Source of the DNA: Acidimicrobiales bacterium | GTDB taxonomy: Bacteria; Actinomycetota; Acidimicrobiia; Acidimicrobiales; Aldehydirespiratoraceae | Direction of reading: 5' to 3' | Length of the DNA stretch: 32,000 nt | Assembly (NCBI GenBank): GCA_963662645.2 | Contig: OY759762.1 | Coordinates: 1,802,004-1,834,003, forward strand | Shown: piece after piece, positions 1 to 28,136 of the stretch | Layout of the letters: the number at the start of each line of letters is the position of its first letter | Position numbering within the stretch: the first letter of the stretch is position 1 | Made by a program: the position numbers and the translations under genes | The notes under the pieces: generated by a model | The model's input: the letters and a program-made list of their open reading frames with translations, nothing else | Told to the model about the DNA's origin: nothing | The model's database searches: none

Positions 1-1117
<1,117 letters not shown>

Positions 1118-1338: not shown

Positions 1339-2547
1339 ATGAGTGGTCCGAAGTGCGCCAGATATCGCATCGACCCGGCTGTGTTGGCCGAGGCGAGGAG
1401 GAGATCGGCTGCATTGGCCGTGCGCGACGGCTTGATCGACCGCATCGCGGCCTTCGAGACAGTGTGCGCCGCTCGACGCAGGGCCGGGCGCACTGCTATG
1501 TGGGAGTGGCAGTCGGGAAGCGTCTCCCGGTCGACCGGCACAGCCGAGATCGAAACGTGGAACATCGAAGCTACAAGGGCGCTGGCAGAAGCCGAGTCGG
1601 AACTCGCCGAAGTCGAACGAAGCGAGCGCCAGCAGGACATCCGCAGCAGGATCGCCGCCGTGGCCTCAGGACGCATCGGCGATCTGATACGTGGCGATGC
1701 CGCGGCCAAGAAGGCTGACGACGACGAGCCGAGACAGCCGGCCGAGTCGGGATCGCCCGGCGCGACCGTGACCGACGACGACCGCCACCGCGAGATCGCG
1801 GCACTGATAGACCGGCTGCCAATCGGTGCGACCGCCCAAGAGCGTGACGCCATCGACGAGCAGATCACCGGGCTGGCGGAGGCGGCGGCAACCGAGTTCA
1901 GCTCCCGCCTCGTCGGGCTCAAGGCCGAGATACAGCGCGTCGAACGGTCGGTCGAATCCCGCGCTGAGGTGCACCGGCGCGCTGAGCAGCTTCTGAGAAC
2001 CCTCGACGGACTAGAGGGCGGCGAGATAGCCGAGAGCCGAGCACTACTGCATCGGGTGATCTCCGGTCAGACGCCTCTGCTGCATGCCGACGTGGAGCGT
2101 GTGGCGCGGGCGCGCTCCGCGGCAACTGCCGACTTCGAGCGACGCCTCGTCGCCACCAAGATCGAGGAGGCGCTTCGACGGTCGGGGATCGAGGTCGGAG
2201 CGGGCTTCGCTACCGATGTCGTCAAAGGCGAGAAGGCCTATGGGGCGGCCCGCTCCTCCGATGAGCACGCCGTCGAACTCCAACTGCGCGACGGCCTCGT
2301 GGACATGCGCATCGTTCGGGCGTCCGGCACATCCGACCCTCGACGCGACACTGCGGCAGAGGTCGAGTTTTGTGAGGACGTCGAACGCGTCAGCTCAGAA
2401 CTGCACAGCCGCGGCGTGGACTTGACGCTCATCAGCAACCAACCTCCGGGCGCGGCCAGGGTCGAGGTCGTCCCCCGCGCTCAGGACGCGCTGGCGGCGC
2501 GGCGACGCAGACGCGCCCAGCCAATCGGAAGGAAACGCGAGAGATGA
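1339..2547 (+). CDS. hypothetical protein, Ala/Arg/Glu-rich and probably largely alpha-helical or coiled-coil, with a compact C-terminal domain; first gene of the six-gene operon
   Basis: 402-aa ORF with GGGAGAGAGG 6-8 nt upstream of the ATG. Long heptad-like helical stretches (EATRALAEAESELAEVERSERQQDIRSRI; LVGLKAEIQRVERSVESRAEVHRRAEQLLRTL). Its stop overlaps the next start (ATGA at 2544-2547). No domain recognised. Confidence 0.7.
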   Translation: MSGPKCARYRIDPAVLAEARRRSAALAVRDGLIDRIAAFETVCAARRRAGRTAMWEWQSGSVSRSTGTAEIETWNIEATRALAEAESELAEVERSERQQDIRSRIAAVASGRIGDLIRGDAAAKKADDDEPRQPAESGSPGATVTDDDRHREIAALIDRLPIGATAQERDAIDEQITGLAEAAATEFSSRLVGLKAEIQRVERSVESRAEVHRRAEQLLRTLDGLEGGEIAESRALLHRVISGQTPLLHADVERVARARSAATADFERRLVATKIEEALRRSGIEVGAGFATDVVKGEKAYGAARSSDEHAVELQLRDGLVDMRIVRASGTSDPRRDTAAEVEFCEDVERVSSELHSRGVDLTLISNQPPGAARVEVVPRAQDALAARRRRRAQPIGRKRER

Positions 2548-4469
2548 CCGACACCCAAGAACCGGCCAACGCCGCACGGCAGGCCGACACCGCACAAGCC
2601 GACACAGCCCAGGAAACTGGCGCCACGCAAGAGATCGAAGTGGCGGCCGACCCTGCGTGGCCGGCTTGGCTGAGGGAGATAGATGCACTGTTGGCGGTCC
2701 ATTCCCAGTTCGTGCTCTCGGGCAATGTGCACGACAGATACCGGCTTCCCTCGAGCGAGACGCCGCTGGCCGACACAATCTCCGCCGCCCTACTGGCAGG
2801 ACTGCGCGGGGCAGGATTCCAAGCGCTGATAGTCCATGACGTGGTCGACGGCTACCGCGTCGTCGCCGACGACCATGAGGCGGCCTGGGCCGATGCCCAT
2901 GCCCTGACCGGCCACGACCTGCGCTCGGCGCCGGCGGACGACCTCGGCCGGCTCGCCGGGGTCATCAATTCCTTCGCGGTGGGCGAAGGTCCCCGCATGG
3001 GACTGGTGCTCGAGTACGCCAGCCGTATCAGCCCGAGCATCACCGACCTGGGCCCGCGGGAGCACGCATTCTTCGCCGCCAGCCTCAAGTGCTCCCACGA
3101 GGCCCGTCCGGGCCACCACCCGTCCGCGTCGCGCGGCGCGATCTACAACCCGGTGTTCTGGGTCGTCGACCGCGAGCACGACCTCCCGGCATGGCTCACG
3201 GCGGGCAATCGGGGCATCCGGGCGATCCCGGTGCCCTGGCCCAGCCTGGCCGAACGCGAGGAGACGGCGGCGCTGCTCGCGGCCACAGCCGACGACGAGG
3301 ACCGCGACCATGCCGTCGAGACGCTGTCCACCCGCACGGAGGGCATGAGCACGGCGAGCCTGTTCGACATCGCGACACTGTTCGTCGACCAACGGATCTC
3401 CTACAGCGACGCGGAGGACGCCGTGCGGGTCTACAAGCTGGGGGCCGCCGAGAGTCCGTGGCGGCGCGGCGCAGCAACCCAGCGGCTTCGGGACCACGAT
3501 GTCGAGGGGGTGCTCAACGGCAAGGTGAAGGGACAGCAGGCCGCGGTCACCAAGGCCGCCGACATCCTCCGGCGCGCCGCGCTCGGACTGTCCGGCGCGC
3601 AGGCGGGGGCAAGCTCGAGCCGGCCCAGGGGCGTGCTGTTCTTCGCCGGGCCGACCGGCGTCGGCAAGACGCTGCTCGCAAAGGCCGTGACCGAGCTGGT
3701 CTTCGGCTCTGAGGACTCCTACGTGCGATTCGACATGAGCGAGTTCACATCCGAGCACGCCGGCGACCGGCTCGTGGGCGCTCCACCGGGCTACATCGGC
3801 TTCGAGGGCGGAGGCGAGCTCACCAACGCGGTGCGCCGCAAGCCCTACACGCTGCTGCTCTTCGACGAGATCGAGAAGGCCCATCCCCGCATCCTCGACA
3901 AGTTCCTGCAACTTCTCGACGACGGCCGCCTCACCGACGGACGGGGCACCACGGTCCACTTCTCCGACACGCTGGTCGTGTTCACCTCGAATCTCGGCAT
4001 GACCCAGCCAGCTCGCGACGGCACCGGCGTCCGCGTGCCGACGGTCACCCCCGCCGACTCCTACAACGTGATCGAGGCCCGAGTCACCGAGGAGATCCGC
4101 CGCTACTTCACCGAGGACCTCAACCGGCCCGAGTTGCTCAACCGGGTCGGCGACAACCTGGTGGTGTTCGACTTCATCCGCCGACCGGTCGCGGTGGAGA
4201 TCATCGACCTCATGCTGGGCAACATCGTTGCCCGGGTCGAGGAGTCCACCGGCACCACCATCGAGATCTCGGACCAGGCGATGGAACAGATCCACGAACT
4301 CGCCACCGCTGACTTGACATTCGGCGGGCGCGGCATCGGCAATGTGCTCGAATCGCGCTTCGTGAACCCGCTGGCGCGGGCGCTCTTCGCCCGAGAACCC
4401 TCGCCCGCTGCCAGCGTCAAGGTCATGGAGGTGTCGAGCGGCAGTGTCCCCCAAGTGGTGCTGCAGTGA
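2544..4469 (+). CDS. two-module AAA+ ATPase: degenerate N-terminal AAA-like module plus an active ClpA/ClpB D2-type module
   Basis: C-terminal half: GKVKGQQAAVTKAADILRRAALGL, Walker A GPTGVGKT, GAPPGYIGFEGGGELT, Walker B LLLFDEIEKAHP, LQLLDDGRLTDGRGTTVHFSDTLVVFTSN. This is colinear with the ClpB/ClpA D2 (AAA_2) signature and is followed by a D2-small-like tail. N-terminal half: AAA-like layout, but the P-loop position reads FVLSGNVHDRY and the Walker B position reads LVLEYA, so it is probably inactive. Confidence 0.9.
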   Translation: MTDTQEPANAARQADTAQADTAQETGATQEIEVAADPAWPAWLREIDALLAVHSQFVLSGNVHDRYRLPSSETPLADTISAALLAGLRGAGFQALIVHDVVDGYRVVADDHEAAWADAHALTGHDLRSAPADDLGRLAGVINSFAVGEGPRMGLVLEYASRISPSITDLGPREHAFFAASLKCSHEARPGHHPSASRGAIYNPVFWVVDREHDLPAWLTAGNRGIRAIPVPWPSLAEREETAALLAATADDEDRDHAVETLSTRTEGMSTASLFDIATLFVDQRISYSDAEDAVRVYKLGAAESPWRRGAATQRLRDHDVEGVLNGKVKGQQAAVTKAADILRRAALGLSGAQAGASSSRPRGVLFFAGPTGVGKTLLAKAVTELVFGSEDSYVRFDMSEFTSEHAGDRLVGAPPGYIGFEGGGELTNAVRRKPYTLLLFDEIEKAHPRILDKFLQLLDDGRLTDGRGTTVHFSDTLVVFTSNLGMTQPARDGTGVRVPTVTPADSYNVIEARVTEEIRRYFTEDLNRPELLNRVGDNLVVFDFIRRPVAVEIIDLMLGNIVARVEESTGTTIEISDQAMEQIHELATADLTFGGRGIGNVLESRFVNPLARALFAREPSPAASVKVMEVSSGSVPQVVLQ

Positions 4470-5128
4470 CGGTCGTAGCCGTCAACCGACTCCACTGGCC
4501 CGTGACCGTGCTCGGGCCGGGAAGACGGGTCGGGATCTGGGTCCAGGGATGCTCTATCGAGTGCCCGGGATGCGTCTCGCGGGACACTTGGCCGTCGATG
4601 AGCCACCGCGACCGCATCCCCGTGGCTGATCTGACCGCCCGCATCGACGCGCTGGTAGACCGCGGGGCCGAGGGGCCCATCGACGGAATCACGCTCACCG
4701 GGGGCGAGCCGTTCGATCAGGCCGACGCGCTCGACGGGCTCCTCGGAGCGCTCCGAAGCTGGCTGGACCGGCGAGGCGCGCCGTCTGCGGACCTGCTCGT
4801 GTACACCGGCTACGAGGAGTCCCAAGCCCGGGAACTCGCGGCCGGAGCCTTCGAACTCGCCGACGCGGTGATCGCCGGGCCGTACCGCGCGGGCCAACCG
4901 GGGACCCGCTGGTGGGGCTCCGGCAATCAGCGCCTGATCACCCGCGACGACGATGCCGCCGCCCGCTACCGGTCGGCACTGCGGGAGGCGCGCCCGGAGC
5001 TGCAAGTAGCCGTCGAGCAGGGGCAGGTGTTCATCATCGGCGTGCCCGGCCGCGGCGCCCTGGCCCAGGTGGAGACCCGGCTGGCCGACGCGGGAGTCGG
5101 CCTGGGGGGCGTGTCGTGGCGACCGTGA
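4466..5128 (+). CDS. NrdG/PflA-like radical SAM activating-enzyme family protein (4Fe-4S, CX3CX2C)
   Basis: GPGRRVGIWVQGCSIECPGCVSRDTW, with Cys codons at 4550-4552, 4562-4564 and 4571-4573. Then GITLTGGEPFDQ, LLVYTGY and DAVIAGPYRAGQPGTRWWGSGNQRLI, colinear with the small anaerobic-RNR activase (NrdG) pattern GC..C.GC.N..W / SGGEP / YTGY / RGS.NQR. The GTG start overlaps the upstream stop (GTGA, 4466-4469). Confidence 0.85.
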   Translation: MTVVAVNRLHWPVTVLGPGRRVGIWVQGCSIECPGCVSRDTWPSMSHRDRIPVADLTARIDALVDRGAEGPIDGITLTGGEPFDQADALDGLLGALRSWLDRRGAPSADLLVYTGYEESQARELAAGAFELADAVIAGPYRAGQPGTRWWGSGNQRLITRDDDAAARYRSALREARPELQVAVEQGQVFIIGVPGRGALAQVETRLADAGVGLGGVSWRP

Positions 5129-5589
5129 CCTGTTCGGGTGCGGACTGCGGCACCGTGTTGGGACCCGCAGACCTGCTGTGTCCCTCCTGCGGCCGTCCCA
5201 GACCGAGGGCGGTTCACACTGCGGGGGCGGGCCGACCGCTCGCCCAGTCGACGCTCGACCAGCCAGACGGCGGCGCCGCCCGCCGTTTCCGCCTCGTCGC
5301 ACCCTGGGGCGAACTCGCCATCGGGGACGCCGAGACCGACATAGGCCGTGAGGTAGGGCCGTTCGCGGCCGAGTTGAGCGGCTACCCGACCGTCTCGAGA
5401 CGGCACGCGACACTGCGGATCACCGAGTCGGGAAGGCTGCACGTGATCGACCACAACTCCTCCAACGGAACGTTCAAGAACGACAGCCGGATCGAGGCGA
5501 ACATCCCGGTGGAGTTGTGCGACCGCGACACGGTGTCGTTCTCGACGAGGCTGAGATTGGACGTGCGAGTGGAGGACGAGCACCCGTGA
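5125..5589 (+). CDS. zinc-ribbon plus FHA-domain protein
   Basis: In frame with track ORF 4912..5589. I place the start at GTG 5125, which overlaps the upstream stop (GTGA). N-terminus CSGADCGTVLGPADLLCPSCG (four Cys, ribbon-like). C-terminus has FHA hallmarks: IGREVGP...TVSRRHATLRI...HVIDHNSSNGTFKN. Confidence 0.85.
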   Translation: MTCSGADCGTVLGPADLLCPSCGRPRPRAVHTAGAGRPLAQSTLDQPDGGAARRFRLVAPWGELAIGDAETDIGREVGPFAAELSGYPTVSRRHATLRITESGRLHVIDHNSSNGTFKNDSRIEANIPVELCDRDTVSFSTRLRLDVRVEDEHP

Positions 5590-6296
5590 AGATCGCCGCG
5601 ACCACCCGGCGCGGCCAGCGGCGCGCCGAGAACCAGGACCGGATAGTGGTCGATAGCACCGTCCTGGGCAGCGACGTCGGCGGGACGACCGAGTTCGACA
5701 CCGGACCGCTCACCCTGTTGGCGGTGATCGACGGCATGGGGGGGCATCCGGCCGGCGGCGTGGCGGCCGCGGCCGCGGCCGATGTGATGGCGTCGGGGTT
5801 CCGCCGGCTGCGGACTCGCGAGGACGTAGGAAGGCTCGTCGAGGACGCCAACGACGAACTGTACGCCCTGATGGACCGGGTGTCCGGGCTGAGCGGTATG
5901 GGCGCGGCCGTAGCGGGGATCTTCACCGCTTCCGACGGACTCGTGATCTTCAACGTGGGCGATGCTCGGGTCTATCTGCACTCCAGCGGCTACCTGATGC
6001 AGGCGAGCATCGACGACCGCCGCCCCGGCGACGACACCGGCCCTGTGACCCAGTCGCTGGGAGGCCTGCGGGCCCATTCGCCGGTCCAGGTCCACCTGAG
6101 CAGCGAGCCCTATGACGGCGGCACAGCACTGGTGGCCAGCGACGGACTGTTTTCCCAGGTGTCCCATGAGCGCCTCGCCGAAGCCATGGCCGCCCCACCG
6201 GCTCGCGCCGCGAGCCGGTTGCTGGACACCGCCCTCGCGGCAGGCAGCCAGGACGACATCTCCCTGGGCTTGCTGCAGCTTCCGTCCCATGGCTGA
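5586..6296 (+). CDS. PP2C-family Ser/Thr protein phosphatase
   Basis: RRGQRRAENQDR, AVIDGMGGHPAGGVAA, NVGDARVYL, LVASDGLF, SQDDISLGLL. The start is taken as GTG 5586 overlapping the FHA gene stop (GTGA); track ORF 5517..6296 is in the same frame. Confidence 0.9.
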   Translation: MKIAATTRRGQRRAENQDRIVVDSTVLGSDVGGTTEFDTGPLTLLAVIDGMGGHPAGGVAAAAAADVMASGFRRLRTREDVGRLVEDANDELYALMDRVSGLSGMGAAVAGIFTASDGLVIFNVGDARVYLHSSGYLMQASIDDRRPGDDTGPVTQSLGGLRAHSPVQVHLSSEPYDGGTALVASDGLFSQVSHERLAEAMAAPPARAASRLLDTALAAGSQDDISLGLLQLPSHG

Positions 6297-8922
6297 CACG
6301 ACCCGACGCGACGATGACTTCCCGCCGAGCGCGCCGACACTGCGCGAGGCACAAGTCCCGTCCAGCGCGCCGACACTGCGCGAGTCCCCTTCGTCGCTCG
6401 AGTCGATGCGGGTTCACACCGGACCCGCCCAGCTGCCCAGCGAACTCACCGACAGCTATCGCCTGGTGCGCCAACTCGCCTCGGGCGGCGCGGAGGCGGC
6501 GCTGTTCGAGGTCGCCGAGACCGGTACCGGCGAGATCCGCGTCTTGAAGATCTACCACCAGCACGTGGCACTGCGAGGCGAGGCGCTGCTGCGCATTCGA
6601 TCGATCGACCCGGCCCATGTAGTGCATCTCGTCGACCACGGCCAGCTCGAGGACGGTCGATGGTACGAAGTGCAGGAACGGATCGAAGCCGGCAACCTCG
6701 TCGACTACCGATCGGGCGCGAGTCCCACGGAGAGCGACCTGGAGGAGGTCGTCGCAGAGTTGGGGGCTGCCATCGCGGCGTTCCACGGAGCCGGGCTCGC
6801 CCACCACGACATCAAGCCCGAGAACATCCTCGTCAGGAACATCTCGCCCCTCGACCTCGTGCTGGGCGACTTCGGGCTGTCGGTCGTGTCCGACAACCGC
6901 ACCTACTACGCGACCAACCGGCACGCCACCATCGCGTATCAGGCGCCTGAGACCATGCGACAGGTTGGAGGCGGCGCACGCGACTACTGGGCCGTCGGGC
7001 TCACCATCGCCATGCTCGCCACCGGCGAGACCCCGTACGCGGGCCTAAACGAACACGCCATCCTCGATCAGCACTACTACCGGATGCCGCCGGCCATCGT
7101 CGAGTCGATGCCGGAGGGCCGCCTCAAGCAGCTGTGTCGGGGACTGACCCGCTACGACCCCAAGACCCGCTGGTCCGAGCAGGAGGTCCGGAGTTGGCTG
7201 AGGGGCCACACTCCGGCCGTCGCGCCGGACGAGCCTCAACTTCCGGCCGACTCGACACGGGTCGTCCACTTCAACAACAAGCGGTTCACTGTTCCGGCCG
7301 CGCTGACCCGCGAGATATTGGAGTGCTGGTCGCTCGCGGCCGAGACCATCGGCGTGAGGGCCCGGCGAGAGCAGTTCATGGACGAGCTGATCCTGGCGTT
7401 CGGCACCGAGCCCCTCGCCATGCTGACCAGGCGGTGGAGCGCCGAACCGCCGCGCCGCGACCGCGTGGACGCCGCCATCGTCGAGCTGCTGCTGACGCTC
7501 GACCCCGAAGCTCCCGCCATCTACCGCTCCCGGCCCCTCGACGCGGCCACCATCGCCGCGGCGGCGCTCGGCGACTCCGAGGAGGACGCCCGCTTCGTTC
7601 GGGACCTCGGTGACCGCGGCCTGCTGTCGGCATGGTCCCACAGCGCCGACTACACGGAACTGGGCGACATCGACCAACGCTGGCAGGACGAGCTGAGTCG
7701 GGCCACCGAGATCATCTCCGAAGTCCGGGCCGCCGGGGCGGCCGCCCCTCCCATCGAGGTCTGGACCGCGCCCCTGCTGGCGGTGAGCGCTCGCGACGAA
7801 CTGATCGACGAATGGCAGCTGCAGCGCGCCCCGCGCCCCTTCGGTGACCTCATGCCCGGCTGGTACGAGCAGATCGCGGACGGATCGAGGCCGGCGGAGG
7901 TGATCGGCTCGGTGCTGCTCTTCACCGAGGCCCAGCGGGTTCAGCGCAACGCGGTAGAAGCACGGCACCGACAACAGCGGGAAGCCGAACGGTCGCGTCG
8001 CGACCGGAAGTACCGGGCACTCCTGTCACTCGCCGGCTGGACGGCGGCCGTGGCGTTCCTGGTCAGCTGGGTGCTGGCGCCAGGAGCGGGGCTCATCGTG
8101 TACGCGATCGCCTTCGCGCTCTTCCGCCAGTGGCGCAACGCCGTAGCCGACCGCCACAGAGTCCAAGAGTCGAGGGGGGAGACACCCGCAACCGAGGCGC
8201 ACGAGGTCGCCTTGTCGCTCTTCCGCCGCTGGTACCGCGCCAGGTCAGATCGCCGACGGGCCCGGCGGTCGAGGAGGGGGATCGTGTCTGCGGCGACCTC
8301 CGCCCTCGTCCGCCAGTCGCGCAATGCCAGGGATCGCCGCCGGGCCCGAGGTTCAGGGGGCGAGGTGCCCGCAACCGCGGCGCGTCCGGGCAGGGACGAG
8401 CTGTCCGCCAGCCGCAGAGCGGAGGCCTACGGGGTCCTGGCCTTCGGGCTTGTGGTGGCATGGGCGATAACCACGGACATCTGGCCACCGCTGGTGCGAC
8501 TGATCGCGAGCGACTCGCTCGACCTGGTAACCGTACGCCAGGACGGCTACAAGCTCGCCGGATTGGCGTCCCTAGCCTGGTCGCTGCTGTCGTTCCGGCA
8601 CCGCCGCAACGAGGGTCCTCCGACGGACGACCAGATCCAGCGACTGCGGGCCGCGGACCGCCGCACCTTGAGGAGGACCCTGCTGCTGACGTTGGTGTGG
8701 GGATTCGTCCGGTTCGCGAGCCTGTCCTTCTCGTGGTCGCGAGGCGCGGTCGCGACGCTGATGCTCAGCGTGTGGGTACCGGTCTCGCTCGGCGGCATGA
8801 GCCTGCTGGTGCGGGGGCGCTGGTCGCATCGCCGGGCCGGCACCAGATGGGCAGTGGTGCTGCTGGCCGCAGGCGCGGCTCTGTTCGCAACCGGACTGCT
8901 GCTGGAGTTCTTGCCGATCTAG
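6289..8922 (+). CDS. Hanks-type Ser/Thr protein kinase with a helical middle region and a multi-TM, Arg-rich-repeat C-terminal region
   Basis: Same frame as track ORF 6112..8922. Start taken as ATG 6289, which overlaps the PP2C stop by 8 nt (ATGGCTGA). Kinase motifs: IRVLKIY (catalytic Lys), HHDIKPENILV, DFGLS, AYQAPE, DYWAVGLTIAMLATGETPY. About 6-7 hydrophobic segments lie from roughly 8020 to the stop. Confidence 0.9.
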   Translation: MADTTRRDDDFPPSAPTLREAQVPSSAPTLRESPSSLESMRVHTGPAQLPSELTDSYRLVRQLASGGAEAALFEVAETGTGEIRVLKIYHQHVALRGEALLRIRSIDPAHVVHLVDHGQLEDGRWYEVQERIEAGNLVDYRSGASPTESDLEEVVAELGAAIAAFHGAGLAHHDIKPENILVRNISPLDLVLGDFGLSVVSDNRTYYATNRHATIAYQAPETMRQVGGGARDYWAVGLTIAMLATGETPYAGLNEHAILDQHYYRMPPAIVESMPEGRLKQLCRGLTRYDPKTRWSEQEVRSWLRGHTPAVAPDEPQLPADSTRVVHFNNKRFTVPAALTREILECWSLAAETIGVRARREQFMDELILAFGTEPLAMLTRRWSAEPPRRDRVDAAIVELLLTLDPEAPAIYRSRPLDAATIAAAALGDSEEDARFVRDLGDRGLLSAWSHSADYTELGDIDQRWQDELSRATEIISEVRAAGAAAPPIEVWTAPLLAVSARDELIDEWQLQRAPRPFGDLMPGWYEQIADGSRPAEVIGSVLLFTEAQRVQRNAVEARHRQQREAERSRRDRKYRALLSLAGWTAAVAFLVSWVLAPGAGLIVYAIAFALFRQWRNAVADRHRVQESRGETPATEAHEVALSLFRRWYRARSDRRRARRSRRGIVSAATSALVRQSRNARDRRRARGSGGEVPATAARPGRDELSASRRAEAYGVLAFGLVVAWAITTDIWPPLVRLIASDSLDLVTVRQDGYKLAGLASLAWSLLSFRHRRNEGPPTDDQIQRLRAADRRTLRRTLLLTLVWGFVRFASLSFSWSRGAVATLMLSVWVPVSLGGMSLLVRGRWSHRRAGTRWAVVLLAAGAALFATGLLLEFLPI
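6328..6384 (+). repeat. perfect 21-bp direct repeat (36-bp period) encoding a duplicated SAPTLRE motif at the kinase N-terminus
   Basis: agcgcgccgacactgcgcgag at 6328-6348 and 6364-6384, identical. Confidence 0.95.
8116..8375 (+). repeat. three degenerate repeats of about 90-100 bp encoding Arg-rich segments in the kinase tail
   Basis: Protein level: ALFRQWRNAVADRHRVQESRGETPATEA / SLFRRWYRARSDRRRARRSRRG / ALVRQSRNARDRRRARGSGGEVPATAA. DNA units start near 8116, 8215 and 8302 (gcgctcttccgccagtgg / tcgctcttccgccgctgg / gccctcgtccgccagtcg). Confidence 0.8.
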
Positions 8923-8934: not shown

Positions 8935-9438
8935 TCAGTAGACGGTGGCCCGGTTGGAGGGGTCCTTGTCGAGCTCGAACGACTGGTGCAGCGCACCAAC
9001 GGCCGGCTCCATGTCGTCGGCTCTGATCACGCACGAGATGCGGATGGCCGACGTGGAGATCATCTCGATGTTTATTCCGGCCGCCGCCAGCGTCTCGAAC
9101 ATCCGGGCGGCCACGCCCGGGTTGGTCTGCATGCCCGCACCGATCAGGCTCACCCGAGCGATGCCGTCGTCGGCGGAGACGTCGTCGGCGCCCAACTCAT
9201 CCATCAGTCCCTCAGCGACGGCCCGGGCTGCCTCGAGCTGCAAGCGGGGAACGGTGAAGCTGATGTCGGTGACGCCCTGACTCGACACGTTCTGCACGAT
9301 CATGTCCACGTTCACGTCGGTGTCGGCCAGCGCCCGGAACAGCCGGCCGGCCACGCCGGGCTTGTCGGCGACTCCCGAAACGGTCATCTTCGCTTCGCTG
9401 GCGTCGTGAGTGACGGCAGAGATGATGGCGTGTTCCAT
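8935..9438 (-). CDS. ask: candidate in-frame aspartokinase beta (regulatory ACT) subunit from an internal start
   Basis: Internal ATG (complement of 9436-9438; Met246, MEHAIISAVTHDASEAKMTVSGV) is preceded on the coding strand by GGGGAGGAAGCC-ATG, a strong Shine-Dalgarno sequence. It corresponds in position and sequence to the LysC-beta start known in Corynebacterium glutamicum. Confidence 0.5.
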   Translation of the reverse strand: MEHAIISAVTHDASEAKMTVSGVADKPGVAGRLFRALADTDVNVDMIVQNVSSQGVTDISFTVPRLQLEAARAVAEGLMDELGADDVSADDGIARVSLIGAGMQTNPGVAARMFETLAAAGINIEMISTSAIRISCVIRADDMEPAVGALHQSFELDKDPSNRATVY

Positions 9439-10173
9439 GGCTTCCTCCCCGGTAACTGTCGTGCCCGGCATCCAGCTGAAGGCGGACCGCACTCGCAGCT
9501 CCACGCCGTAGGTCCGGGCCAGCTCCACTGCCCGCATGGCCGGCTTCGGGCAGCCGCTGGCGGTCATCTCGAGCAGTTCATCGAATGAGATCACATCCAT
9601 GCGCCGCGCTTCGGGCGCTATGCGGGGGTCGGCGCTGAAGACCCCGGGCACATCGGTGTAGATCTCGCAGCAGTCCGCTTCGAGGACGTGGGCCAGCGCC
9701 ACGGCCGTGGTGTCGGAGCCTCCCCGGCCGAAGAACGTCACATCGCCGTCGCCGGACACCCCCTGAGAGCCGCCCACCACCGGAACTAGGCCCCGGTCCA
9801 GCGCCTCGGTTATGCGCCTCGGGGTGATCTGAACGATCTTGGCGTCAGTGTGGGAGGAGTCGGTGCGGAAACCGGCCTGGCTGCCGGTGAACGACGCGGC
9901 GGGAACTCCCAGATCGCTGAGCGCCATGGCCATGAGGGCACAGGCCTTGCGCTCGCCGCCGGTGATGAGCATGTCGACCTCGCGGCCGGGCGGATTCGAG
10001 GCCACATCGGAGGCCATTCGCAGCAGATCGTCGGTCTCGCTGCCCATCGCCGAGACGACCAGCACCACCTCGTCGCCGTGGTTGCGGCGGCGCGCCACAT
10101 GGTCGGCCACGACCCGAATGCGGTCGGGACCGGCCACCGAGGTACCACCGAACTTCTCAACGACGAATGTCAC
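8935..10173 (-). CDS. ask: aspartate kinase (aspartokinase), catalytic domain plus two ACT domains
   Basis: MTFVVEKFGGTSVAG (KFGGTS), VVLVVSAMGSETDDLL, FFGRGGSDTTAVALA, IYTDVPGVFSADPR and a C-terminal ACT-repeat region. Full-length 412-aa ORF. Confidence 0.95.
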   Translation of the reverse strand: MTFVVEKFGGTSVAGPDRIRVVADHVARRRNHGDEVVLVVSAMGSETDDLLRMASDVASNPPGREVDMLITGGERKACALMAMALSDLGVPAASFTGSQAGFRTDSSHTDAKIVQITPRRITEALDRGLVPVVGGSQGVSGDGDVTFFGRGGSDTTAVALAHVLEADCCEIYTDVPGVFSADPRIAPEARRMDVISFDELLEMTASGCPKPAMRAVELARTYGVELRVRSAFSWMPGTTVTGEEAMEHAIISAVTHDASEAKMTVSGVADKPGVAGRLFRALADTDVNVDMIVQNVSSQGVTDISFTVPRLQLEAARAVAEGLMDELGADDVSADDGIARVSLIGAGMQTNPGVAARMFETLAAAGINIEMISTSAIRISCVIRADDMEPAVGALHQSFELDKDPSNRATVY

Positions 10174-10813: not shown

Positions 10814-12441
10814 CCTGGATCCACCGGTGGGCGGCTGGTGTGGTGGGGGTTGGGGTTGGTTCGGCGCGTGGTGGGTTCTGGTGGGCGGCGCCGGGCGCCG
10901 CGGGCTGGTGCGGGCGTGCTGGGCCGGGGGTTGGGGCTTTGGCGGTTGGTGGCGCTGGGGGTGGTGCTGGGGGACGCCGGGCCCCTGGGTTCGGGGGTTC
11001 AGATGAGCAGGGGCAGGTTGCGGAGGTGTCGCAGCGCTCGGGTGAAGGTGTGCTGCCAGGGCCAGTCGGCGGGCAGGCGCAGGATGTGTCGTCGGCCGTG
11101 GTTGACGACGCGGCCGCAGACGGTGAGCAGCCGCTGTTTTTGTGTGTTGGCGACGGTGAGGCGGCCGGGGTGCTGGGCGCGGCCGAGGCGTGCGGTCCAG
11201 CGGGCGATGTTGTGGGCGAGCGAGGCGCAGGCGAGGTGGGCGGCGTTGGCGAAGAACCTGCCCGAGGGGCAGTGGGCGAGGCCGTTGTCTTTGAGGTCAC
11301 GAATGGCGAGCTCGACTCGGGCGTGGTCTCGGTGGTAGGCGTCGGCGGCGGCGGTGTCGAGGTCGTGGCGGTCAGTTATGAAGCAGTGGTGGCGCCAGTC
11401 GGGCCAGAGGGTTGCCTGTGCGCCTGTGAGGCGGCTGCGGCGCGCCACCAGCCGCAGCTTGCGGGGGCCGTCGGGGTCGCGGCGGCCGGTCTCGATGGTG
11501 GTCTCAGCGACCTGCGCTATGCCTTCTTCGGTGTAGGGGATCGGCGTCCAGGCTTTGTCCCCGATGGCGTCTATGGCTGCTGAGACCTTGGAGTTCTGCG
11601 GGATCGTGATCGAATACGACGCGCCGCGGGCCTCGATGGCGTCGATCATGTCATAGGAGAAGAACCCCGCGTCGGCGCGCACGGTCACCGCCGCGCCGGG
11701 AGCGAGACGACGCAGCCTCGCCAGGGTCTCGGCCACAAACCGCAGGTGGCCGCGCTGGGAGCTGCCGGACCGCATCCGGACGTGGACCATCTCGCCGGTG
11801 TCGTCTCTGGCCGCGACCAGCGGGTGATAGCCCAACACGCCGGTGTGGCCGTAGGCGGCGCCCTGCTTGGATGTGCCGTGGACCTCACAGACCGTGGAGT
11901 CCAGATCCACCGTGATCTCCCCAGCGTCGGGCGCCGCGCCCAAAGACCACGCCCGGCCGAGCGCCAGCTCGCCGGCGCGGTCGAGCTGGCGCACGTGTCC
12001 CCACGTGAACGAGCGCAGCCATGTCCCCAAAGTCGACGGCGCCAACGGCTCAAACGGCAGCACCGCCCCAGCAGAGCCCGCCCGCAGCCTGCTCGCGTCG
12101 TCGATGAACGAGCCGCCCACCAGCATCGACGCCGCCACCGACAGCGCCTTGGCCCCCGAGCCGCGCCCCGACCCGGGCGGGCGCACCGCCGCGTCGATCA
12201 GCGCCTCCAGCCCGAGGCGGTCCATCACCGTGCCCGCCAGCAACAGCCCCGCATCCGCCACCAAAGACCCGTCGTCGAAACGAACCTCCAACCCGTCGAT
12301 CCCACCCGATACGCTGCCCACAGGAAGTGCCTCCTCACGTGGCCGGAATGACCGTTACTGCAAACAGCATTCTCCCATGTCAGGAGGCCTTTCCGGTGGA
12401 CGCGCCAACCCCACAGCGCTCACCGCGCCGGTGGATCCAGG
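10814..12441 (-). mobile_element. IS1380-family insertion sequence, apparently intact (1628 bp)
   Basis: Perfect 14-bp terminal inverted repeats: cctggatccaccgg (10814-10827) and ccggtggatccagg (12428-12441). They are flanked by a 5-bp direct repeat CTCAG (10809-10813 and 12442-12446). The element contains a single transposase ORF. Size, CC-initiated inverted repeats and a 4-5 bp duplication fit the IS1380 family. Confidence 0.85.
10999..12321 (-). CDS. IS1380-family DDE transposase
   Basis: 440 aa. GAYGHTGVLGYHPLV, VTVRADAGFFSYDMIDAIEARGASYSITI, HHCFITD and the Y-x2-R-x3-E signature YHRDHARVELAIRDLK. GTG start with GAGGAGG 8 nt upstream. Confidence 0.9.
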   Translation of the reverse strand: MGSVSGGIDGLEVRFDDGSLVADAGLLLAGTVMDRLGLEALIDAAVRPPGSGRGSGAKALSVAASMLVGGSFIDDASRLRAGSAGAVLPFEPLAPSTLGTWLRSFTWGHVRQLDRAGELALGRAWSLGAAPDAGEITVDLDSTVCEVHGTSKQGAAYGHTGVLGYHPLVAARDDTGEMVHVRMRSGSSQRGHLRFVAETLARLRRLAPGAAVTVRADAGFFSYDMIDAIEARGASYSITIPQNSKVSAAIDAIGDKAWTPIPYTEEGIAQVAETTIETGRRDPDGPRKLRLVARRSRLTGAQATLWPDWRHHCFITDRHDLDTAAADAYHRDHARVELAIRDLKDNGLAHCPSGRFFANAAHLACASLAHNIARWTARLGRAQHPGRLTVANTQKQRLLTVCGRVVNHGRRHILRLPADWPWQHTFTRALRHLRNLPLLI

Positions 12442-17718: not shown

Positions 17719-19002
17719 CTACGCGCCGATGGTGGTGACACCGCCCATGTAGGCCTGCAGCGCCTCGGGGACGGCCACTGAGCCGTCAGGCTGGCGGTAC
17801 GTCTCGACCAGCGCGGCCCACACCCGGGGCACGGCCAGCCCCGACCCGTTGAGGCTGTGCGCCATCTTGGTGCGCCCCCCAGACGCCGGGCGGTAGCGGA
17901 TGTCGGCTCTCCGGGTCTGGTAGTCGCGGCACCACGACACGCTCGAAACCTCCAGCCACCGGTCCGAGCCGGGCGCATAGGCCTCGATGTCGAACGTGCG
18001 GGCCGAGGCATCGCCCAGATCGGCGGCGCACAGGTCGAGCACCCGATGGGCCAGTCCGAGATCGGCGATGGCCCTCTCGGCCCGGTCGAGGATCTCAGCG
18101 TGGATGTCGGCAGCCTGCGCGGGCGTGCAGAACCCGTAGAGCTCCACCTTGTCGAACTCATGGACGCGCAGCAGCCCACGGGTCTCTCGTCCGGCAGACC
18201 CCGCCTCGCGTCGGAAGCAGGACGTGTGGCCCATCAACCTCACCGGCAACGTTTCCTCGTCGACGATCTCGCCGGACAGCAGCGACGTCAGCGGCACCTC
18301 GGCGGTGGGAATGGCCCACAGCCCGTCGCGCTCGAGATGGTAGGCATCGTCGGAGAACTTGGGCAGATGGCCGGTGCTGGTCATGGTCTCGGTGCGCACC
18401 AGCGTGGGCGGCCGGATCTCCTCGTACAGGTCGCGGTTGCGGTCCAGCCCGTAGTCGATCAGGGCCCGCACCAGCCTGGCTCCGAGCCCGCGGTACATGG
18501 CGAACATCGCACCCGACATGCGCACCGCCCGATCGATGTCGAGGATGCCAAGCTCGGTGCCGATGTCCCAGTGCGGCACCCGCTGATGGTCGCCGTAGGA
18601 GCCCGGGTCGTAGCCGACGGTGCGCGCCACGACGTTGTCGTCGGGACCCGCCCCGTCGGGACAGTCGTCCGCGGGCATGTTGGGCACGAACAGCAGGATC
18701 CGGCGGATCCACTCCGAGAGCTGGTCGGCCTCGGCGGAGAGCTCGTCGATGCGGGCGCCGAGCTCGCGGCTGCGAGCCCGCAACTCCTCAGCCTCGTCGG
18801 CTCGCCCATCGCGGAACAGCGCGCCGACCTCGGCGGAGATGCGCTTCACCTCGGCTCGCAATTCGTCGGCCTCGCTGACCACACTTCGGCGGCGCTCGTC
18901 GTGTTTGACGACCTGATCGAGAGGCTCCGTGGGCTCGCCACGACGGGCGACCGCGGCCTTGACGGTGTCGGGCTCGGTCCTCAGCAGGCGCAGGTCCAGC
19001 AC
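17719..19002 (-). CDS. serS: serine--tRNA ligase
   Basis: MLDLRLLR with an N-terminal coiled-coil arm. Class II motifs: HTSCFRREAGSAGRETRGLLRVHEFDKVE (motif 2) and HSLNGSGLAVPRVWAALVE (motif 3). GTG start; an in-frame TGA lies 21 nt upstream. Confidence 0.95.
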   Translation of the reverse strand: MLDLRLLRTEPDTVKAAVARRGEPTEPLDQVVKHDERRRSVVSEADELRAEVKRISAEVGALFRDGRADEAEELRARSRELGARIDELSAEADQLSEWIRRILLFVPNMPADDCPDGAGPDDNVVARTVGYDPGSYGDHQRVPHWDIGTELGILDIDRAVRMSGAMFAMYRGLGARLVRALIDYGLDRNRDLYEEIRPPTLVRTETMTSTGHLPKFSDDAYHLERDGLWAIPTAEVPLTSLLSGEIVDEETLPVRLMGHTSCFRREAGSAGRETRGLLRVHEFDKVELYGFCTPAQAADIHAEILDRAERAIADLGLAHRVLDLCAADLGDASARTFDIEAYAPGSDRWLEVSSVSWCRDYQTRRADIRYRPASGGRTKMAHSLNGSGLAVPRVWAALVETYRQPDGSVAVPEALQAYMGGVTTIGA

Positions 19003-19030
19003 GCCGCAGACGGTACCGGCTCAACTCCTT

Positions 19031-19204
19031 CGCGAGAACTTCACCCGCGTTGCCCGGCCAGGACATCCACGGCAACAAGGTCCGCGCCGCCGGGTTCAGC
19101 TCCCGCGCGAGAACCTCGCCTGGCGTTGTCAATTCGTATCGAGGGTTCACGGTACGTCTCAGACCTGCTATAATGGTTACGAGAACTTCACCCGGCGTTT
19201 GTCT
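19031..19204. repeat. three copies of a motif of about 20 nt, GAGAAC(T/C)TC(A/G)CC..GCGTT, spaced 75 and 72 bp apart
   Basis: cgcGAGAACTTCACCCGCGTTGcc (19031-19054), cgcGAGAACCTCGCCTGGCGTTGtc (19106-19130), tacGAGAACTTCACCCGGCGTTTgtc (19178-19204). Copies 1 and 3 share an identical 13-mer. Confidence 0.85.
19146..19174 (+). promoter_or_regulatory. sigma-70/SigA-type promoter with extended -10 (TTCACG, 17 nt spacer, TGC-TATAAT)
   Basis: Perfect TATAAT at 19169-19174 preceded by TGc (19166-19168). TTCACG at 19146-19151 matches TTGACA at 4 of 6 positions, exactly 17 nt upstream. The predicted start site near 19181 coincides with repeat copy 3 and leaves a leader of about 183 nt before ATG 19364. 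Confidence 0.45.
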
Positions 19205-19363
19205 GTTCGCAAAGCCGTGGTTTTGCACACCTGTGGAAGACCTGCCATGATGGCGAGTCCCCGATAGGCGCCAACAACGGACCGACGCCCGCGGCCTGGC
19301 CTCCGGAGGCCGGCTCGCTAGGTGGACGGTCTCGGTACCAGCTAGAGGGACATTGAGAGAGAT

Positions 19364-20911
19364 ATGACAAGCACAAACCAGAACAAGATCCGCCGACCAA
19401 AGTACGAACCCACCGCCCGGGAGCGATTAGTCCTCGATCAGGTCGAGAACCCCCGCTACGACCGGCAGATCGTCAACGGCCTCGACCCGTTCATCGACGA
19501 GGGCGCGCCCGCCGACATGGAGGGCTTCTACACCCAGGAGGAGCTGGCTGAACTGGGGAAGCTCCGCGGCACCGACCGCGACGTCGAGGCCCGGATGCCG
19601 GTGAAGATAACCCGCCACTACTTCGAGATGGCCAAGGCCAGCCCGGCGCTGCAGACGCTCGTCAAGGCCTCCGCCGACGAGACGGCCAACCTCGAGGGCG
19701 ACGAGGACCCCGCCGGCCAGCTCGACTACAGCCCTGTCGAGGGCCTTCTCCACAAGTACGAGATGGCCCTGCTGTACGTGATATCCACCTGCTCGGCCCA
19801 CTGCCGGTTCTGCTATCGCGAGGAGCTGATAGCCCGCAAGGACATCGCCAGGGCCGACGGCACCGTCAAGAAGAAAGGCCTCGCCCAGCTCAAGGAAGTG
19901 ACCGACTACATCAGGGCCCACAACGCCGCAGTCGAGGCCAACGGGGGCGAGCACCCCGAGACCGGCCGGCCCAAGCTGCGCGAGATCCTGCTCTCGGGCG
20001 GCGATCCGATGGTGCTGCCCAACTCCAAGCTGGCCGGCTGGTTCACCGCGCTGGCCGAGGCCGGGGCGGAGGTGATCAGAGTGGGCACAAAGGAGCTGGC
20101 CTTCCATCCCGACCGCTTCGACGACGCGTTCATGTCGATGCTCGACCGGTTCCACGAGGTCTACCCGGACGTGGCCCTCCGTCTGATGGTCCACTTCAAC
20201 CATCCCGACGAGCTGCTGACCAAGGCAAGCGACGGAAGCTACGTCAAGAGCGAGCACGGCCAGTACCAGTGGCACCCCCGCGTCAAGCGGGCCGTGGAGG
20301 CGGTCACCTCCAGGGGCTGGATCTGCGTCGAGAACCAGTCGCCGATCATCCGGGGCGTCAACGACGATCCCGACGCCCTCAGGATCCTGCAGCGGACTCT
20401 CAAGGCGGCCCGCATCGAGAACCACTACTTCTTCGGCGGGCGCAACATCGTCGCCTACAAGGCGTTCAACGTGCCTGTCGAGACCGCCTGGCGCATCCTC
20501 AACGAGTCCCAGCAGGGACTCTCGGGGGTGGAGGCCCACGCCCGGCTCACCCTGGTGCACTTCAAGGGCAAGACCGAGGTGGCCACGGTCACCGACGAGC
20601 CGATCCCGGGCGTGCCCGGCGCTGAGAACGGCGTGGTGGTGTTCAAGGTGCTCCGCAGCCCGGCCGATGCAGGCGACCGGGGCAAGACGGCCATCGTCGG
20701 GCGCAACCCCGAGGCGCTGTGGTTCGACGACTACGACGACAGGGTCATCATCGACGAGGCCGGCCTGTTCAACTTCCAGAGGCCCCAACGGGTGCGGATA
20801 CCCGTCGCCCGGGAGAGCTCAACCGCCGCGGGCACTCGCCGCACGCCGGCACAGCGCCACCGCGACGAGGAGCTCCACAAGCACCGCACCGCGCCCGCGT
20901 CCAGCACCTAG
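19364..20911 (+). CDS. KamA-family radical SAM protein (lysine 2,3-aminomutase-like), divergent
   Basis: VKITRHYFEMA, GLLHKYEMALLYVISTCSAHCRFCYR (CX3CX2C), ILLSGGDPMVL, VHFNHPDEL, NQSPIIRGVNDD and FKGKTEV aligning with the GGGK PLP-lysine block. It also has an insertion of roughly 20 aa after the Cys motif and a basic, low-complexity C-terminal tail. Confidence 0.85.
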   Translation: MTSTNQNKIRRPKYEPTARERLVLDQVENPRYDRQIVNGLDPFIDEGAPADMEGFYTQEELAELGKLRGTDRDVEARMPVKITRHYFEMAKASPALQTLVKASADETANLEGDEDPAGQLDYSPVEGLLHKYEMALLYVISTCSAHCRFCYREELIARKDIARADGTVKKKGLAQLKEVTDYIRAHNAAVEANGGEHPETGRPKLREILLSGGDPMVLPNSKLAGWFTALAEAGAEVIRVGTKELAFHPDRFDDAFMSMLDRFHEVYPDVALRLMVHFNHPDELLTKASDGSYVKSEHGQYQWHPRVKRAVEAVTSRGWICVENQSPIIRGVNDDPDALRILQRTLKAARIENHYFFGGRNIVAYKAFNVPVETAWRILNESQQGLSGVEAHARLTLVHFKGKTEVATVTDEPIPGVPGAENGVVVFKVLRSPADAGDRGKTAIVGRNPEALWFDDYDDRVIIDEAGLFNFQRPQRVRIPVARESSTAAGTRRTPAQRHRDEELHKHRTAPASST

Positions 20912-24060: not shown

Positions 24061-24975
24061 CTAGAGGCGGGGCTCGGAGGGCGGGGGGCCGAGGCGTTCG
24101 AACTCGGCCTCGACATCGGCGGTGGTGAGAGTGTTGGCGGCAAGGCGCCGGCGGCGCTCGCTGGCGTCAGCGTGCCGCTGGGCGGCCGAGTAGCGGAAGA
24201 AGCGGATGGCGATCAGGGTCCACAGGTACAAGCCGCCCAGCACCTTCATGATCGCGCCAGCGGCCTGCTGGTCGGCGGCCACCGAGATGCCGAACAGGCG
24301 CTGGGCATGGTCGTAGACCGGGTACACCGAACCCTCGGCGAAGGTCAGCCAGGCAGCCGGCACGGTGGGAATGATCGACATGGTGAACAGGTACACCATC
24401 TTCATCGGCTCTGACAGGTGCAGCTCCCTCAGCGGTCCGACCACCGGCGTCCACATGGCCAGAGCGCTGGCGAACATCAGCAGGTGCATGGCGTAGTGGA
24501 AGGGACCACTGCGGACGGACAGCTCCACCACAGTGTTCCAGTGCATAAGCGCCTGTAAGGCGTTGAACGCCACCCCGGCCACCAGCGGGTGCACCAGGCG
24601 GCGGACGACCCCGGCGGTGCGGGAGCCTTCGACCAGGATGAGCCGGGCCAGCCATTCGGGCACCGCCATCAGCAGCAGCGGCGGCACCACGAAGCTGATC
24701 AGCAGGTGCTGCACCATGTGAACCGAATAGAGGTACTCCTCGGCGATGTCGTGCATGGGCCAGTCCGCCGAGACCCACAGCAGGGCAACACCGGCAACGA
24801 AGCACAGCCGTTGGCGGCCGGTGACCGCGGCGGTGCCCGCAGGGCCAGCCGGGCCGGCTGCGGGAGCCACCACCCGGACCACGTAGAGGCCGAGGCCGAC
24901 GATCGCGGCGACCATCAGCCACACCTCGGGGTGAAATTGGAAGCGCCAAGCGTCGGTCGCGGCCAGCGCGCCCAT
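24061..24975 (-). CDS. ctaG: cytochrome c oxidase assembly factor CtaG (Caa3_CtaG family membrane protein)
   Basis: Polytopic membrane protein with HMVQHLLISFVVPPLLL, AFNALQALMHW, HYAMHLLMFASALAMWTPVVGP and DQQAAGAIMK. Confidence 0.8.
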   Translation of the reverse strand: MGALAATDAWRFQFHPEVWLMVAAIVGLGLYVVRVVAPAAGPAGPAGTAAVTGRQRLCFVAGVALLWVSADWPMHDIAEEYLYSVHMVQHLLISFVVPPLLLMAVPEWLARLILVEGSRTAGVVRRLVHPLVAGVAFNALQALMHWNTVVELSVRSGPFHYAMHLLMFASALAMWTPVVGPLRELHLSEPMKMVYLFTMSIIPTVPAAWLTFAEGSVYPVYDHAQRLFGISVAADQQAAGAIMKVLGGLYLWTLIAIRFFRYSAAQRHADASERRRRLAANTLTTADVEAEFERLGPPPSEPRL

Positions 24976-25014
24976 AGCTCAGGTCAAGGCGTCGGTCGCG
25001 GCTGGCGCGCCCAC
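24948..25014. repeat. imperfect duplication of about 28 nt of the ctaG start region
   Basis: aagcgtcggtcgcggccagcgcgcccat (24948-24975, containing the ctaG ATG) versus aaggcgtcggtcgcggctggcgcgcccac (24986-25014, carrying GTG in place of ATG). Confidence 0.8.
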
Positions 25015-25016
25015 CG

Positions 25017-25373
25017 CTAGACCCAGAACTCGAAGACGGTGAGCGTGACGAGATACACCCCGACCGCCAGGATCAGCCCGGCGGTGAACATCCGGCCGAA
25101 CAGCTTGTTGTCGAAGCGCAGGTGCATGAACCAGGTAGCCACCAAATAGAACTTGACGATCATCATGAAGATGAGCGACGGCACCAGCGCCACGCCCCAG
25201 TCGACCACCGACTCGAAGTATGTGAACACTTCGAGCGCGGTGATCACCGCTAGGACGACGGCAATCTTGACGTAGGCCCAGTCCGAAGGATGGGCGTGGC
25301 CCTCTTCGTCGTGATGCTCGGCAACCTCGTCGGCTTCGGGCTCGGAGTGCTCGGAGGTAGCGGTGTCGCTCAT
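25017..25373 (-). CDS. cytochrome c oxidase subunit IV (small prokaryotic COX4 type)
   Basis: 118 aa. Acidic, His-rich N-terminus followed by three hydrophobic helices (YVKIAVVLAVITALEVFTYF, LIFMMIVKFYLVATWFMHLRFD). It lies immediately downstream of subunit III. Confidence 0.7.
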   Translation of the reverse strand: MSDTATSEHSEPEADEVAEHHDEEGHAHPSDWAYVKIAVVLAVITALEVFTYFESVVDWGVALVPSLIFMMIVKFYLVATWFMHLRFDNKLFGRMFTAGLILAVGVYLVTLTVFEFWV

Positions 25374-28135: not shown

Positions 28136-28136
28136 A

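Follow-up and report, generated by a model that had tools for sequence, protein, structure and literature searches.

An activase-type radical SAM protein in a widespread cluster with AAA+, coiled-coil and kinase genes

A gene at positions 4466..5128 on the plus strand of a 32,000-nucleotide stretch of DNA from an Acidimicrobiales bacterium (contig OY759762.1, positions 1,802,004 to 1,834,003; the whole stretch is referred to here as the window) starts with GTG and encodes an NrdG-like radical SAM (S-adenosylmethionine) protein of 220 amino acids, which we call rSAM. Most likely, this protein would be an active enzyme of the activase lineage that was drawn into a self-contained module (four to six genes) and has ceased to serve ribonucleotide reductase. 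To our knowledge, every characterised member of the NrdG and PFL-AE (pyruvate formate-lyase activating enzyme) families acts on a dedicated glycyl-radical enzyme of anaerobic metabolism, on which it installs a glycyl radical. The cluster that contains rSAM was not found in PADLOC, Pfam, NCBIfam or the searchable literature and, on genomic inference, we rate it as a putatively new, widespread multi-gene system that contains an activase-type radical SAM protein.

Gene calling guided by the GC content of third codon positions (GC3), together with family scans, places rSAM in a tightly packed operon on the plus strand. The order of the genes is coiled-coil (CC) protein, AAA+ protein, rSAM, zinc-ribbon/FHA protein, PP2C phosphatase and Ser/Thr kinase. 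An earlier note, made from the sequence alone, had named a 402-amino-acid protein, an AAA+ protein and an FHA protein as neighbours; all three are present, and so are the PP2C and Ser/Thr kinase genes. Overlaps of 4 nucleotides are found at the CC/AAA+, AAA+/rSAM and FHA/PP2C junctions, and the PP2C and kinase genes overlap by 8 nucleotides. The rSAM stop codon overlaps in-frame GTG starts of the FHA gene, and the extent of that overlap is 4-13 nucleotides, depending on which GTG is used. Because most consecutive genes overlap in this way, the genes of the operon are expected to be translationally coupled.

Sequence, architecture and family of the radical SAM protein

So far as can be read from the translation, the catalytic motifs of rSAM are intact. 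The cluster motif consists of C29, C33 and C36 (C-x3-C-x2-C) and is followed by W42; GGEP occupies residues 79-82, YTGY residues 113-116 and GSGNQR residues 151-156. All of these motifs had been listed in the earlier note, and the list stands apart from one trivial detail of spacing, since C36 and W42 are separated by five residues rather than four. The Fer4_12 profile of Pfam aligns over its whole length (1-137 of 137) with rSAM residues 15-158 (E 3e-19, 70.1 bits against a cut-off of 22), and positions 10-152 of the 154 in the NrdG model TIGR02491 (NCBIfam) align with residues 14-159. Thus, the proposal that the protein has the architecture of a small activase from end to end was correct. 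So was the proposal that a C-terminal extension lies outside NrdG: because the Fer4_12 and NrdG matches end by residue 158-159, residues 160-220 (61 amino acids) are a true extension, within which QVAVEQGQVFIIGVPGRGALAQVETRLADAG forms residues 180-210.

This extension is kept in an alignment of 77 relatives, in which Q180, G192, P194 and W218 are invariant and the chain terminates in a VSWR[PR] motif (VSWRP in the window protein); because of this conservation, it is not an artefact of open reading frame calling. More than 1,200 protein clusters make up the subfamily; a homology search yielded at least 1,228 relatives, nearly all of which are full length at 213-227 amino acids, with the extension included. 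In the AlphaFold2 model of rSAM (mean predicted local distance difference test score, pLDDT, 89.5; predicted TM-score, pTM, 0.88), the extension is predicted to form a helix (162-174), two strands (180-184 and 187-191) and a second helix (198-208), with a pLDDT of 73-88 per block of 10 residues. Upstream of the cluster motif, the window protein has a glycine loop that reads L16-G17-P18-G19-R20-R21 (GPGRR). Throughout the 77 relatives this loop is invariant as L16-G17-P18-G19-x-R21, and the same is true of H10, P12 and V13, the three cysteines C29, C33 and C36, D40-T41-W42, G79-G80-E81-P82 and S152-x-N154-Q155.

Several comparisons place the protein in the NrdG/PFL-activase branch rather than the QueE branch, a placement that is supported by sequence models as well as by structure. 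For all 77 relatives, the best NCBIfam model is NrdG, followed by PflA and then YjjW. The QueE model TIGR04349 is matched by at most 16 of the 77, weakly (best E 1.1e-5), and the window protein matches no QueE model at E<=0.01 in the NCBIfam scan. A profile search of the PDB with rSAM gives PFL-AE at 2e-12, with QueE second at 6e-6. When the predicted structure is compared with the PDB by Foldseek, the PFL-AE entries 3c8f, 8fo0 and 3cb8 come out on top (E 2.3e-6 to 1.8e-5) and superpose over about 140 residues with a TM-score (TMq) of 0.45-0.47; QueE and then viperin-like enzymes follow. These results agree with the assignment in the earlier note to the small activase type. They also answer the checks that it had suggested, in that the predicted structure has PFL-AE as its closest fold and neither the models, the PDB profile search nor Foldseek groups the protein with QueE.

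The rank of QueE and the viperin-like enzymes as second and third groups of structural neighbours, the second place of QueE in the PDB profile search and a match to the PHROG family 'QueE-like' (1.8e-6) can also be taken to favour a different explanation, which we regard as unlikely. According to this explanation, rSAM would, like QueE and viperin, have a small molecule or nucleotide as its substrate, and its product would be a toxic or signalling output; the AAA+ and CC proteins, instead of being substrates, would serve as sensors or scaffolds. Prokaryotic viperins, which are radical SAM effectors that make antiviral nucleotides, do exist. Furthermore, none of the operon partners has an acceptor motif of the glycyl-radical type, and the additional C-terminal domain of rSAM might seal a small ligand into the active site. 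However, in both sequence and structure rSAM is consistently nearer to NrdG and PFL-AE than to QueE, the QueE models being touched only by the minority of relatives given above, and the GPGxR loop, which is specific to activases, is invariant. In addition, a core of about 150 residues suggests an NrdG-like truncated barrel that would lack the C-terminal half with which QueE and viperin bind their substrates.

Belonging to the activase branch does not make rSAM a true NrdG, which it is not: score, architecture and partner all fail. Of the four NrdG equivalogs compared (TIGR02491, NF008335, TIGR02826 and TIGR02495), TIGR02491 gives 69.7 bits, below its equivalog cut-off of 126.1, and the scores against the other three are also below their cut-offs (44.4/199, 26.8/151.7 and 25.2/131.15). 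The score of rSAM is under the PflA cut-off of NCBIfam as well. That it is a glycyl-radical activase is something that we infer from its relatives. With respect to a partner, no NrdD- or PFL-like gene was detected by Pfam and NCBIfam scans of the GC3-supported open reading frames of the 32-kb window, and neither an R[VIL]xG[FYW] nor an RxCGY motif is present in any operon protein or any operon frame. The earlier note had reported both absences, that of the motifs from inspection by eye, and the scans bear it out.

It is very improbable, in our estimation, that rSAM is simply an ordinary NrdG, with coincidental neighbours and with its NrdD encoded at some other place in the genome. NrdG is indeed the best-scoring family, some relatives are named 'anaerobic ribonucleoside-triphosphate reductase activating protein' by the JGI pipeline, and the search for nrdD covered the 32-kb window and the neighbourhoods of relatives rather than whole genomes. 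Nevertheless, the protein falls below every NrdG equivalog cut-off, and even the best of the 77 relatives reaches only E 4.8e-28 against TIGR02491. An ordinary NrdG is also at odds with the conserved additional domain of 61 residues, with synteny with AAA+ and kinase genes across phyla, and with co-variation of the genes. Because the neighbours are conserved across phyla and their stop and start codons overlap, a role together with a distant nrdD is very unlikely. Furthermore, many of the host genera are what we take to be aerobic actinomycetes, and the window genome itself encodes aa3 oxidases.

The gene cluster and its distribution

Relatives of rSAM are present in at least 543 of 185,579 species representatives (one genome per species). 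Neighbourhoods were compared for the 80 best loci, and the counts that follow refer to the 65 of these that have at least 3.5 kb of sequence on both sides. A full-length homologue of the AAA+ protein is encoded in 61 of the 65, in 55 of them immediately before the rSAM gene, and 58 of the 65 have a kinase gene. In contrast to this core, FHA (28/65) and PP2C (9/65) genes characterise the actinobacterial type of locus together with a single locus from Latescibacterota (L073). An iterated hidden Markov model (HMM), by which the CC family is defined, detects a member in front of the AAA+ gene in 59 of 69 loci. Pairwise identities of rSAM, the AAA+ protein, the C-terminal domain of the CC protein and the kinase correlate with r = 0.93-0.95; because of this correlation, the four behave as one co-inherited unit.

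The 80 best loci include Actinomycetota (Actinomadura, Micromonospora, Actinoallomurus, Kitasatospora, Streptomyces, Solirubrobacterales and others), Betaproteobacteria (Undibacterium, Azonexus, Rhodocyclaceae, Gallionella, Methyloversatilis), one locus from Verrucomicrobia and one from Latescibacterota. In Micromonospora, the order is kinase, unknown 414-amino-acid protein, AAA+, rSAM, FHA and PP2C, adjoining NACHT and CHAT genes; two Burkholderiales contigs carry an unknown 438-amino-acid protein, an AAA_2 protein, rSAM and a kinase, adjoining IS66. Some loci depart from the common arrangement. The relative from Verrucomicrobia (L054) has neither the VSWRP tail nor any of the partners and is found among small unknown open reading frames. 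At another locus (L086, 7174-12327), a shorter upstream protein of 305 amino acids precedes the core, and a 519-amino-acid protein with no Pfam match takes the place of the kinase. At four Actinoallomurus loci (L005, L007, L009 and L010), the upstream proteins begin with MSESVGYSGE or MSNSVGYSGE and are missed by the CC HMM, and no kinase was detected.

The AAA+ protein (2544..4469, plus strand, 641 amino acids; Pfam AAA_2 4.9e-47, ClpB_D2-small) has a ClpB-D2-type motor with a D2-small domain at residues ~320-628. Correspondingly, the ClpB model TIGR03346 matches residues 320-628 only (ClpB 559-844), with 258.7 bits against a cut-off of 1232. Since the family keeps the Walker A motif GPTGVGKT and the ClpB pore loop (GAPPGYIG in the window protein, GAPPGY[IV]G in the family), the protein should be a working translocase, to judge from its sequence. 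Residues 1 to ~300 form a domain that is conserved within the family; this N-terminal half has no match in the PDB or profile searches, and Pfam and NCBIfam contain no family for it. A degenerate D1-like AAA+ domain was considered for this half and rejected, as the PDB profile match reaches only the start of D2 and an hhalign comparison with the protein's own D2 gives a probability of <1%.

The CC protein (1339..2547, plus strand, 402 amino acids) represents a new family, defined by the iterated HMM, with no match in Pfam, NCBIfam, PADLOC or PHROG. It is composed of an N-terminal motif, a long, poorly conserved helical region, a C-terminal domain of about 110 residues and a basic tail with a P-x-x-R pattern. 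The C-terminal domain has near-invariant G283, T292, G297, D337, E341, C345, G359 and G371 and the consensus LGYxV...TLF..GG...W..Y.VR.RV...NFNVVR...D...E..WC...L...L..RG......R.L.AG..PVQ.V. A word-indexed profile search with this domain gave mostly fragments, and the family was therefore sized by an exhaustive search, which yielded 1,418 representatives of clusters at 50% identity, 614 of them at E<=1e-10. Among the 150 best matches, the domain forms the C terminus or lies close to it, and full-length members have about 350-460 amino acids.

In the AlphaFold2 model of the CC protein (pLDDT 84.8), an N-terminal strand (5-11) is followed by helical hairpins and a small alpha/beta domain, in which the last long strand leads into a loop that contains G371. 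Foldseek finds no significant structural neighbour for this model in the PDB (best E 0.09) or among the BFVD viral models, and the modelled fold is not that of a glycyl-radical-enzyme barrel. A flavodoxin-like C-terminal domain was also considered, because of a match to a Desulfovibrio flavodoxin. This match is weak (E ~0.002 over 32 residues, with a co-linear second stretch), and neither the AlphaFold2 topology, a strand-rich sheet with one long helix, nor Foldseek supports it, so it was attributed to chance. With respect to the N terminus (window 1339-1365; L001-L083), 101 of 114 full-length members begin with MS[GS], and 92 of 114 with MSGP. The glycine of MSGP was rejected as a general radical site, given that some clades have MSSS, MSSA or MSES and thus no glycine at that place.

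The remaining three genes of the operon encode a putative phospho-signalling set. The zinc-ribbon and FHA protein (5116..5589, plus strand, with GTG 5116 or 5125 as start; ~154-157 amino acids) was recognised by FHA-type matches, and its orthologues in the relatives L089 (91% identical) and L090 (74% identical) are annotated as FHA plus Zn ribbon. It is followed by the PP2C Ser/Thr phosphatase (5586..6296, plus strand; PP2C_2 6e-8, Stp1_PP2C 3.5e-26), which has 236 amino acids if it starts at GTG 5586, the same length as its orthologue in L089. The Ser/Thr kinase (6289..8922, plus strand, 877 amino acids; Pfam Pkinase 5.9e-24) has intact HHD and DFG motifs, a middle region of about 250 residues and a C-terminal multi-pass membrane region; C-terminal hydrophobic segments are found in nearly all of its orthologues. 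The PADLOC kinase models PD-T4-6 and MADS mad6 match this kinase.

Genomic setting and a proposed mechanism

In the window, the operon lies between asd (1-558, minus strand) and ask (8935-10173, minus strand). Together with a divergently transcribed gene for a multi-pass membrane protein of 202 amino acids (509..1117, minus strand), it makes up an island of ~8.4 kb. The membrane-protein gene has 51% GC as compared with ~69% for the genome and may be a clade-specific accessory gene, being found at the same position in the close relatives L084, L085 and L089 and absent from more distant loci; its product has no family match in PADLOC or NCBIfam. The arrangement in L089 is that of the window. In L090, ask and asd are contiguous (18079-20563), and the cluster lies a few kb away, by three DDE transposases. 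These arrangements suggest that the island was inserted or rearranged into the ask-asd pair. Elsewhere, relatives of rSAM are found among toxin-antitoxin genes (TacA/acetyltransferase, Fic, PemK, MazE, SocA) and transposases, the locus L014 adjoins the S subunit of a type I restriction-modification system, and the contexts of the cluster bear the hallmarks of an accessory, mobile module.

Other features of these regions may be recorded here. About 2 kb from the island, the window contains a DDE transposase gene (DDE_Tnp_1_4, 2e-44) at 10999-12321 (minus strand), of the same family as the three tandem copies beside the cluster in L090. L084 and L085 are two near-identical copies of the system, with ~6 kb of flanking sequence, on one contig of 8.8 Mb (at ~3.25 and ~7.63 Mb); in this lineage, the kinase includes FHA as a fusion (1,052-1,053 amino acids), and rve and DDE_3 transposases lie on the flanks of one copy. 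An unrelated second radical SAM gene at 19364-20911 (plus strand) encodes a KamA/lysine-2,3-aminomutase-like protein of 515 amino acids that scores below all equivalog cut-offs. Two sets of aa3-type oxidase genes occupy 24061-31998 (minus strand), one with COX1, COX2, COX3 and CtaG and a second CtaD/CtaE pair; since these aa3-type cytochrome oxidase clusters are present, the host respires oxygen. An Rfam scan of the window gave no matches.

Taken together, these results have led us to a tentative model, to which we give somewhat less than even confidence: rSAM would be a protein-directed radical enzyme that works with the AAA+ and CC proteins under phospho-control and has a role in biological conflict. 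In this model, rSAM would bind a [4Fe-4S] cluster and SAM, generate the 5'-deoxyadenosyl radical and, like its relatives, abstract a hydrogen atom, with a protein and not a metabolite as the donor. With a core as short as about 150 residues, the active site is open, as it is in PFL-AE for protein substrates, and the glycine-rich loop of PFL-AE contacts the substrate peptide, as seen in the 3cb8 structure. Because rSAM keeps both the open core of NrdG size and this loop, a protein is its most probable substrate. The target might be the CC protein, in which case the exposed loop at the near-invariant G371, beside D337, E341 and C345, would be the best candidate site; alternatively, the AAA+ motor of ClpB-D2 type might hold or thread a polypeptide that serves as the target. 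The module would be switched on and off by the membrane Ser/Thr kinase, joined in Actinomycetota by FHA and PP2C. The conflict role, anti-phage or stress-triggered, is proposed because the distribution of the cluster is patchy and mobile. Protein substrate, site, phospho-regulation and defence role are all inferred rather than observed.

It should be noted that several observations weigh against this model. No operon partner has a canonical glycyl-radical motif or fold, and G371 of the CC protein could be purely a structural residue of a turn. The next structural neighbours of rSAM, QueE and viperin, are small-molecule enzymes, which makes a nucleotide or metabolite substrate possible. Four betaproteobacterial loci (L014, L021, L037 and L071) have rSAM and the kinase without the AAA+ and CC genes, and because of these loci the AAA+ protein is not strictly required. 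With respect to defence, the PADLOC-DB v2.0.0 models match only the generic kinase and AAA core, with no match to rSAM, the CC protein, the FHA protein or the 202-amino-acid membrane protein; and the association with defence islands is anecdotal.

Another explanation is that the cluster is a housekeeping or developmental device for protein quality control or signalling, for example the stress-regulated remodelling or radical modification of an endogenous protein. The radical chemistry would be the same, so that on mechanism this explanation overlaps the model above. The core metabolic surroundings of the window copy, with ask, asd, dut and serS, would fit it, as would the lack of any match to a curated defence model beyond generic domains. 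Moreover, triads of Ser/Thr kinase, FHA and PP2C are common in actinobacterial signalling, and ClpB-type motors are chaperones. We nevertheless hold it to be the less likely account, if one to be reckoned with. The spread of the cluster is patchy and reaches distant phyla, and its locations vary, are flanked by transposases and include two copies on one contig. In the window, ask and asd are split apart by the cluster, which is accompanied by the gene of 51% GC, and toxin-antitoxin, NACHT, CHAT and restriction-modification genes are found among its neighbours.

A more specific version of the protein-directed model can be imagined, one that we think quite improbable. Activated PFL is cleaved by O2 at Gly734. 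By analogy, the kinase-gated ClpB-D2 motor would present the CC loop, or a foreign or host chain, to rSAM, which would abstract a C-alpha hydrogen, and the resulting backbone radical would react with O2 and cleave the chain. Such a device would be an irreversible, radical-driven proteolytic switch or a protein-destroying effector, an immune-like module able to work in aerobes. If this were true, rSAM would be without precedent among activase-type radical SAM enzymes, in that its physiological product would not be the catalytic glycyl radical on a glycyl-radical enzyme. More generally, if the substrate of rSAM is an operon partner, the known chemistry of activase-type radical SAM enzymes would be widened and a new multi-gene system, possibly an immune one, would be defined. 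The analysis also flags the JGI name given above as a recurrent mis-annotation. The compact cassette of four genes, versions of which exist in Betaproteobacteria, is directly testable.

Comparison with known systems

NrdG (TIGR02491; PHROG 626) aligns with rSAM over the whole profile and has a catalytic core of the same size, about 150 residues. The two share the PV..GPGxR loop, the CX3CX2C motif followed by (S/N)xDTW, and GGEP, TGY and WxGSxNQ. However, NrdG is a single-domain protein of ~150-190 amino acids, whereas rSAM adds the conserved helix-strand-strand-helix domain that ends in VSWR[PR], and the rSAM score is about half of the NrdG equivalog cut-off. The partner of NrdG is usually encoded next to it (nrdDG); in the loci examined, rSAM is never beside nrdD and is found beside AAA+, coiled-coil and kinase genes instead. 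PFL-AE (PflA; 3c8f, 3cb8, 8fo0) comes nearest to rSAM both among solved structures and among PDB sequences, and the two have in common the glycine-rich loop and the elements that bind the cluster and SAM. PFL-AE is larger, with 245 amino acids and a fuller (beta/alpha)6 barrel, of which rSAM covers only the ~140 residues that superpose. Its acceptors, PFL and GrcA, have no counterpart among the operon partners of rSAM, and no RVSGY motif is present there.

The AAA+ partner may be compared with the ClpB/Hsp104 disaggregases, which have an N-domain, a D1 domain with an M-domain, and a D2 domain; the partner aligns at D2 and D2-small only. Two ClpB/Hsp104-type defence components in PADLOC, the candidate PDC-M37B (2e-26) and Dodola DolB (1e-14), share the ClpB-D2 ATPase core with it, but the matches cover only ~120-170 residues of this core, and the two systems have no counterpart of the N-terminal domain of 300 residues, of the CC protein or of rSAM. 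Conflict systems that contain a kinase, PP2C and a radical SAM protein are described by Kaur et al. 2020 (PMC7159879), and these include vWA-MoxR systems with a different radical SAM effector. Triads of kinase, PP2C and adaptor in defence and conflict systems (TerY-P, PD-T4-6, MADS mad6) have in common with the cluster a Ser/Thr kinase, a PP2C phosphatase and a phosphopeptide-binding adaptor on a module centred on an NTPase, a general theme treated in PMC7159879; the adaptor here is FHA rather than vWA. The passages of that paper on radical SAM, ClpB and PP2C do not contain the combination of an NrdG-like radical SAM protein, a ClpB-D2 AAA+ protein and an MSGP coiled-coil protein.

Finally, QueE and the viperin-type enzymes have the same partial-barrel radical SAM fold as rSAM. 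To QueE, the similarity in sequence is far weaker than to PFL-AE, as judged from the PDB profile search. Both QueE and viperin act on nucleotides and are without the GPGxR loop of the activases, which rSAM has. Viperins nevertheless provide the precedent for a radical SAM enzyme as an immune effector.

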